Positions 10,766 to 11,479 of a DNA stretch of 64,000 nt are shown one piece after another (position 1 is the first letter of the stretch; every line of letters starts with the position of its first letter). Position numbers and translations under genes: made by a program. The stretch is taken from assembly GCF_003334255.1 (NCBI RefSeq), contig NZ_QOWU01000015.1. One strand, written 5' to 3'. The notes under the pieces were generated by a model. That model worked only from the letters and a program-made list of their open reading frames with translations. It was not told the origin of the DNA and did no database searches. The stretch is from Escherichia coli. Its GTDB lineage: Bacteria > Pseudomonadota > Gammaproteobacteria > Enterobacterales > Enterobacteriaceae.

Positions 10766-11479
10766 ATGCGACACATTTTTCAACGATTATTGCCCCGACG
10801 GCTGTGGCTGGCAGGGCTGCCATGTCTGGCATTGCTGGGTTGCGTGCAGAATCACAATAAGCCAGCCATTGATACGCCAGCAGAAGAAAAAATTCCGGTT
10901 TATCAACTGGCTGACTATCTTTCTACTGAATGTAGCGACATCTGGGCGCTGCAAGGTAAATCAACCGAAACCAATCCGCTTTACTGGCTGCGGGCGATGG
11001 ATTGTGCTGATCGTTTAATGCCTGCGCAGTCGCGTCAGCAAGCTCGCCAATATGACGACGGCAGCTGGCAAAATACCTTTAAACAAGGGATTTTGCTCGC
11101 CGACGCCAAAATTACGCCGTATGAGCGCCGCCAGCTGGTCGCGCGTATTGAAGCGTTAAGTACCGAGATCCCGGCACAGGTTCGCCCACTGTATCAACTC
11201 TGGCGCGATGGTCAGGCGCTGCAACTGCAACTGGCGGAAGAGCGCCAACGTTACAGTAAACTCCAGCAGTCCAGCGACAGCGAGCTGGATACATTGCGCC
11301 AGCAACATCACGTTCTACAGCAGCAACTGGAACTCACCACCCGCAAGCTGGAAAACCTGACCGATATTGAACGCCAGCTCTCGACCCGCAAACCGGCTGG
11401 AAATTTCTCGCCGGATACGCCGCACGAGAGTGAAAAGCCCGCGCCATCCACCCATGAGGTCACTCCTGATGAGCCATAA
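10766..11479 (+). CDS. yfhG: Outer-membrane lipoprotein YfhG/QseG, accessory to GlrK
   Basis: Signal peptide with lipobox LLGC, then a Q-rich coiled-coil-like region; sits between kinase and regulator; start 10760 or 10766. Confidence 0.85.
   Translation: MRHIFQRLLPRRLWLAGLPCLALLGCVQNHNKPAIDTPAEEKIPVYQLADYLSTECSDIWALQGKSTETNPLYWLRAMDCADRLMPAQSRQQARQYDDGSWQNTFKQGILLADAKITPYERRQLVARIEALSTEIPAQVRPLYQLWRDGQALQLQLAEERQRYSKLQQSSDSELDTLRQQHHVLQQQLELTTRKLENLTDIERQLSTRKPAGNFSPDTPHESEKPAPSTHEVTPDEP

Follow-up and report, generated by a model that had tools for sequence, protein, structure and literature searches.

The qseG lipoprotein gene of the Escherichia coli qseEGF operon, its overlap with glrR in Enterobacteriaceae and a repeat inserted at its upstream junction

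The qseG locus and its lipoprotein product

We analysed a 64,000-nt stretch of E. coli DNA (hereafter the window), of which the segment from 8600 to 13300 matches annotated E. coli chromosomes with 100% identity and occurs in all 5426 of 5426 complete E. coli genomes. The reading frame under study extends from an ATG at 10766 to a TAA at 11477-11479, as determined from the ORF list and from the raw sequence; the gene is qseG, from the qseE-qseG-glrR (qseEGF) operon of E. coli. The gene order according to RefSeq and Rfam is glmY-qseE-qseG-glrR-glnB, with all genes from qseE to glnB on the plus strand (Table 1). RefSeq sets the same limits for qseG and glrR on the identical DNA of E. coli G1/2, and the K-12 MG1655 record displays the same gene arrangement, including an 11-nt overlap of qseG and glrR. 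The small RNA gene glmY matched its Rfam model with 146 bits (gathering score: 33), and its synteny with the operon has been described (PMC6075780). GlrR matched its NCBIfam model with 982 bits (cut-off: 763). In published work qseEGF is treated as one operon, whose one mapped promoter lies 25 bp upstream of qseE (PMC6075780); in Proteus, qseEGF is co-transcribed with glmY.

Table 1. Coordinates of the genes and features at the qseG locus (positions in the window)
Feature	Position	Strand	Basis
glmY small RNA gene, sigma-54 target of GlrR, directly upstream of the operon	8932-9079	+	Rfam RF00128
qseE/glrK, sensor histidine kinase, 475 aa, TTG start	9174-10601	+	RefSeq on identical DNA, ORF list
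Putative relic ORF, 48 codons (MLTAYPIRLFYLSV…LRPLG*)	10601-10747	+	translation, comparison with 80 loci
Palindromic dispersed repeat, 147 bp, between the qseE stop and the body of qseG	10608-10754	.	junction alignment, fold, copy number
qseG (yfhG), outer-membrane lipoprotein, 237 aa	10766-11479	+	ORF list, sequence, family model, RefSeq
QseG signal peptide and lipobox L23-L24-G25-C26	10766-10843 (lipobox 10832-10843)	+	PROSITE-like pattern
Gln/Leu-rich C-terminal helix of QseG, residues 138-209, QseE-binding arm	11177-11392	+	composition, PDB 7x6f, PMC12691602
Shine-Dalgarno core GAGG of glrR, inside Glu-Val codons of qseG, 9 nt before the ATG	11456-11459	+	sequence
11-nt overlap ATGAGCCATAA, glrR start codon through qseG stop codon	11469-11479	+	sequence, RefSeq
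glrR/qseF, sigma-54-dependent response regulator, 444 aa	11469-12803	+	NCBIfam NF011695, RefSeq
glnB	12864-13202	+	RefSeq

QseG matched the NCBIfam model NF007997 with 359.3 bits (cut-off: 234) over residues 2-236, and Pfam PF13942 (Lipoprotein_20) is recorded for an identical protein. The signal peptide comprises 25 residues, with an n-region containing four Arg followed by AGLPCLALLGC. Since the lipid-bearing Cys26 is followed by V27, QseG carries no Lol-avoidance Asp; the 25-residue export signal, Cys26 and the absence of a Lol-avoidance residue are likewise stated in PMC6075780. Both C26 and L23 are invariant among 16 aligned orthologues. Glutamine makes up 19.4% of residues 138-209 and 21% of residues 144-205, compared with 10.5% of the whole protein, and leucine accounts for a further 19.4% of residues 138-209. 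Crystal and cryo-EM structures of QseG have been published (Salmonella complex: PMC12691602): the entries PDB 7x6f, 7x6g and 7x6h match residues 55-209 of the E. coli protein at 100%, while 9m06 and 9m08 represent the Salmonella orthologue. In the Salmonella complex, the long C-terminal helices of the two QseG subunits pair in parallel as a two-helix bundle, which straddles the QseE sensor dimer (PMC12691602). The original prediction, made from the DNA letters, had named the gene yfhG/qseG and had described its product as a lipoprotein with an LLGC lipobox and a glutamine-rich coiled-coil segment. The identity is upheld by the family model above its cut-off, by the identity to PDB 7x6f and by the lipobox pattern, which is matched by L23-L24-G25-C26; the coiled-coil claim is a fair description of the solved structure. 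The family is small, with 183 matches in a profile search of 1.84 billion representatives.

The nesting of the lipoprotein gene between kinase and regulator genes, also part of the original prediction, was borne out by the gene order, by RefSeq and by the published three-component system. At five distant homologue loci qseG again lies between qseE and qseF/glrR, and this position has been reported for Gamma- and Betaproteobacteria and Acidithiobacillia (Gong et al. 2025, PMC12691602). QseG of K-12, which is identical to that of the window, interacts with the periplasmic domain of QseE, and QseF phosphorylation in vivo depends on it; the name "three-component system" was given by Göpel & Görke 2018 (PMC6075780). 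Direct activation of QseE autophosphorylation by QseG was shown for Salmonella by Gong et al. 2025 (PMC12691602). The three-component kinase/lipoprotein/regulator arrangement read from the sequence was thus correct and had already been published (PMC6075780; PMC12691602). In mechanistic terms, the long C-terminal helices of the QseG dimer clamp the periplasmic four-helix-bundle sensor of the QseE dimer. QseE autophosphorylation is switched on by this clamping and leads to phosphorylation of GlrR/QseF, which in its phosphorylated state activates the sigma-54 promoters of glmY and rpoE.

The QseE/QseG/QseF (GlrK/YfhG/GlrR) system of E. coli K-12 and EHEC is the same system, with no difference in gene order, protein or limits. 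QseEGF of Salmonella enterica shares architecture and mechanism, with a QseG that is approximately 62% identical and in which lipobox and C-terminal helix are conserved. It differs in three respects: the qseG/qseF overlap is a 4-nt ATGA (loci L016 and L047) rather than 11 nt; qseG begins 1 nt past the qseE stop without the inserted repeat that E. coli carries at this place; and the lipidated Cys is at position 37 instead of 26, because the N-terminus is longer. Control of an inner-membrane sensor by an outer-membrane lipoprotein that spans the periplasm is also known from NlpE-CpxA and RcsF-IgaA/RcsCDB, which resemble QseG in this mode of action. However, nlpE and rcsF are located away from the kinase genes, whereas qseG sits inside the operon and overlaps the regulator gene.

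The qseG/glrR overlap across Enterobacteriaceae

The last 11 nt of qseG (ATGAGCCATAA) are at the same time the first 11 nt of glrR, with the glrR ATG at 11469-11471, exactly as had been claimed. All 5426 complete E. coli genomes have the 61-nt junction as a single copy, 3955 with an identical sequence. Of the 30 pairs of same-strand neighbours in the first 50 kb of the window, 4 overlap, so that the qseG/glrR overlap is statistically unremarkable. Other overlaps in the window include those of the hca operon on the minus strand (hcaB/hcaC, 4 nt, 29044-29047; hcaC/hcaF, 1 nt, 29364; hcaF/hcaE, 4 nt, 29879-29882) and the convergent pairs tadA/mltF (4 nt, 2915-2918) and hcaT/csiE (9 nt, 33557-33565). 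The overlap is already annotated and ordinary, and published work covers the qseG gene together with its product, structure, partner kinase and operon; the new and modestly useful part here is a comparative survey of overlap lengths.

Comparison with other qseEGF operons, proposed as a check alongside the original prediction, covered 80 loci from different Enterobacteriaceae species plus the window (81 loci in total), and the qseG stop and the glrR start were located in each. An overlap was found in 80 of the 81 loci, albeit of varying length. The most common form, a 4-nt overlap (ATGA), occurred at 52 loci belonging to most genera, followed by 14 nt (14 loci; Klebsiella, Raoultella, some Enterobacter and Superficieibacter), 1 nt (7 loci; Citrobacter amalonaticus group, Intestinirhabdus and Yokenella), 11 nt (6 loci; Escherichia only, i.e. 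five loci and the window) and 8 nt (a single Kluyvera locus). The only gap in this set, of 42 nt, was found in Leclercia adecarboxylata NCTC13032 (locus L029, approximately at 3600-3700). The QseG tail of this sole gapped locus differs (…PKSADIPR*), pointing to a frameshift or to faulty assembly of the record. At the junctions of five more distant homologues we found two 4-nt overlaps, a 1-nt gap, a 41-nt overlap and a 55-nt gap. All 81 loci have a GAGG/GGAG core upstream of the glrR ATG, with a spacing of 6-10 nt.

The 8-, 11- and 14-nt forms are in a reading frame one base off that of the 1- and 4-nt forms, and all of them end at a TAA inside codons 3-5 of glrR (CAT-AAA or CGT-AAA). Given the shared shifted frame and the same TAA, they are best read as independent 1-nt frame changes by which the ATGA stop was lost. 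In Escherichia, a 1-nt frame change would have removed the ancestral ATGA stop, with qseG then running on to the TAA within glrR codons 3-4 (CAT AAA). Judged from these alignments, the overlap is a family-wide trait whose ancestral form is ATGA and not the 11 nt of E. coli. The 11-nt length is an Escherichia peculiarity, not the rule in Enterobacteriaceae.

The disordered C-terminal tail of QseG is variable and proline-rich in 16 orthologues, its only conserved part being the acidic …E-[DE]-V-[KT]-P (11447-11468; alignment columns ~245-258). The codons for this motif coincide with the GAGG ribosome-binding site of glrR, and the motif may be conserved because the GAGG core is encoded there; its conservation may thus reflect a dual-coding constraint rather than one at the protein level. 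As the 3' end of qseG overlaps the ribosome-binding site of glrR, tagging or deleting it alters the translation signals of glrR, which is a practical caveat for the genetics of qseEGF.

Possible translational coupling of qseG and glrR and its alternatives

Taken as a whole, the best explanation of the feature, to which we assign a probability of about 0.9, is that it is qseG, that its product activates QseE and that it overlaps glrR; this overlap may come with a facilitating coupling. Ribosomes finishing qseG would pass over the initiation site of glrR, keep it unfolded and re-initiate locally. The overlap of start and stop codons that characterizes coupled pairs is present in the window (11469-11479) and in 80 of 81 loci. 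In the classic translationally coupled overlapping pairs of E. coli operons, trpE/trpD, trpB/trpA and galT/galK, the downstream start likewise touches or overlaps the stop of the upstream gene, whose coding region contains the Shine-Dalgarno sequence; for these pairs the dependence of the downstream gene has been measured, whereas the likeness of qseG/glrR is known here from the sequence. Moreover, the overlap has been kept through several frame changes, which argues that close juxtaposition is favoured. Coupling of qseG and glrR, as suggested in the original prediction, is therefore plausible from the arrangement of the genes, and we see an even chance that ribosomes ending qseG help glrR translation by unfolding its site and by local re-initiation. 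Strict dependence of glrR on qseG translation is unlikely; since glrR can initiate on its own Shine-Dalgarno sequence, coupling would be facilitating and not obligatory. A masked initiation site is not evident, as the 101 nt around the junction (11410-11510) fold no better than shuffled sequence (minimum free energy of -21.5 kcal/mol; shuffled mean of -21.5 kcal/mol; z = 0.00), and an unmasking mechanism, in which mRNA structure hides the glrR start, was therefore set aside. No discussion of translational consequences of the overlap was found in the QseEGF literature consulted.

A tenable, if tentative, alternative holds that the overlap is without regulatory meaning, being a by-product of genome compaction and of a small frame change with loss of the ancestral stop, and that on the operon mRNA glrR relies on its own Shine-Dalgarno sequence for independent translation. 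The GAGG core conserved at all 81 loci and the lack of RNA structure masking the start site are consistent with independent translation, as is the proteomics cited in PMC6075780, with 36 QseF versus 11 QseG molecules per cell (~3-fold). Because QseF exceeds QseG, pure termination-reinitiation does not fit this ratio unless the stabilities of the proteins differ. The length of the overlap also drifts between genera (1, 4, 8, 11 and 14 nt), gaps occur in Leclercia (L029) and in two of the distant loci (L085 and L087), and overlaps are frequent in ordinary operons. Against an overlap devoid of meaning speaks its retention in 80 of 81 loci although the frame changed independently in several lineages, as expected if juxtaposition is selected. 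A strain carrying qseG-3xFLAG, in which the two genes are separated, works and has kept full signalling activity (PMC6075780). According to the primers, however, tag and scar DNA with an artificial ribosome-binding site lie between qseG and the glrR ATG; as the scar supplies its own strong site, the strain does not probe the native one and is unclean as a natural test of coupling.

Decidedly less probable is the expression of glrR also, or mainly, from an internal promoter in the qseE-qseG spacer or in qseG, which would make the kinase gene and the lipoprotein/regulator genes partly separate units in E. coli. A "hypothetical internal promoter" in the spacer was raised by Göpel & Görke, and the abundance order fits, with QseE undetected, followed by 11 molecules of QseG and 36 of QseF per cell (PMC6075780), although membrane proteins are under-counted in proteomics. 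The 164-nt spacer is, in addition, foreign DNA with a terminator-like hairpin and T-run at 10609-10626. On the other hand, qseEGF has been published as one operon, and a consensus scan of 8600-13300 found no sigma-70-like site on the plus strand, a weak negative given that this insensitive scan also missed the experimentally mapped qseE promoter.

Finally, a glrR start at the in-frame ATG 11454-11456, 15 nt upstream of the annotated one and giving a 26-nt overlap, is hardly credible and was rejected: although an ATG occurs there and at the equivalent position of other Escherichia loci, it is confined to Escherichia and is not preceded by a purine-rich ribosome-binding site, the N-terminus M-[STI]-x-R-K-P-A conserved outside this genus aligns to ATG 11469, the alignment to the NCBIfam GlrR model begins at residue 1 of the 444-aa product, and both RefSeq and K-12 annotate 11469.

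The repeat inserted between qseE and qseG

The palindromic repeat between qseE and qseG has perfect 9-bp terminal inverted repeats (AGCCTATCC at 10610-10618 and GGATAGGCT at 10742-10750) and is flanked on both sides by TAA (10605-10607 and 10752-10754), a 3-nt candidate target-site duplication that could also be due to chance. The 164-nt spacer folds into a long hairpin of -57.3 kcal/mol. An E. coli genome has the repeat in a median of 5 places. Paralogous copies, and related ones from records of Klebsiella, Citrobacter, Salmonella, Pantoea, Enterobacter, Serratia and Yersinia, match the spacer query from position 8/9 to position 149-154; no other copy was found within the 64-kb window. In most Enterobacteriaceae the qseE stop and the qseG ATG overlap or adjoin, usually in the form ATGA, and the N-terminus of QseG reads MNLSLVSMSH…. 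The qseE/qseG junction of E. albertii is TAATGCTAAGTCTGGTGAATATG, without the 147 bp, while E. coli and its closest relatives have 147 extra bp between TAATGCTAA and AGTCTGG. In the comparison of 80 loci, neither E. albertii nor any genus other than Escherichia carries the element at this site. Being short, bounded by terminal inverted repeats, multicopy, and present or absent at orthologous sites, the spacer element is MITE-like. These junctions indicate that the repeat was inserted into an ancestral start-stop overlap of qseE and qseG.

The putative relic ORF opens at the ancestral qseG ATG, with a 1-nt overlap with the qseE stop, and runs through the repeat to a TAG at 10745-10747, in the frame of qseG and 18 nt short of its present ATG. 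In E. whittamii (L004), no stop codon interrupts this frame, which continues through the insert into qseG. Because the insertion displaced the qseG start, E. coli QseG begins at the former Met8. Directly after the qseE stop, a terminator-like hairpin that constitutes the left arm of the repeat is followed by ATTTTATTTG (10609-10626 on the plus strand, 10629-10606 on the minus strand), and this hairpin could attenuate read-through into qseG.

A bolder reading, which we regard as rather doubtful, combines these observations. A mobile repeat of ~147 bp would have landed exactly in the ancestral qseE/qseG overlap, uncoupled the lipoprotein gene from the kinase gene, moved the start to the former Met8 and left the 48-codon relic. 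QseG has been reported as limiting for QseE/QseF signalling, so that the insertion could set the QseG:QseE ratio; the E. coli-specific gain of the glmY/rpoE envelope pathway could then depend on the repeat and not on the qseG/glrR overlap, the latter having been preserved by selection through several frame changes. The inserted repeat may explain the difference in qseG start between E. coli and Salmonella, and it may bear on the relative expression of qseE and qseG.

The sequences of RU-1/ERIC, RU-2/YPAL and RU-3 given in Delihas 2007 did not match the repeat. A full-text literature search for RSA, Box C, IRU and BIME did not find a paper on it. It may correspond to the repeat named "RSA" in Blattner et al. 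1997. With a permissive threshold, the sole Rfam match in the spacer was Xanthomonas sX9, which at 29.4 bits was below the threshold of 44 and was rejected as chance. Elsewhere in the window, matches at Rfam gathering level were obtained for the iscRS stability element (38539-38648), sroE (59495-59586) and naRNA4 (37751-37822) on the plus strand and for ryfA (46023-46326) and IS128 (46458-46666) on the minus strand, all of which are expected for this region of E. coli.
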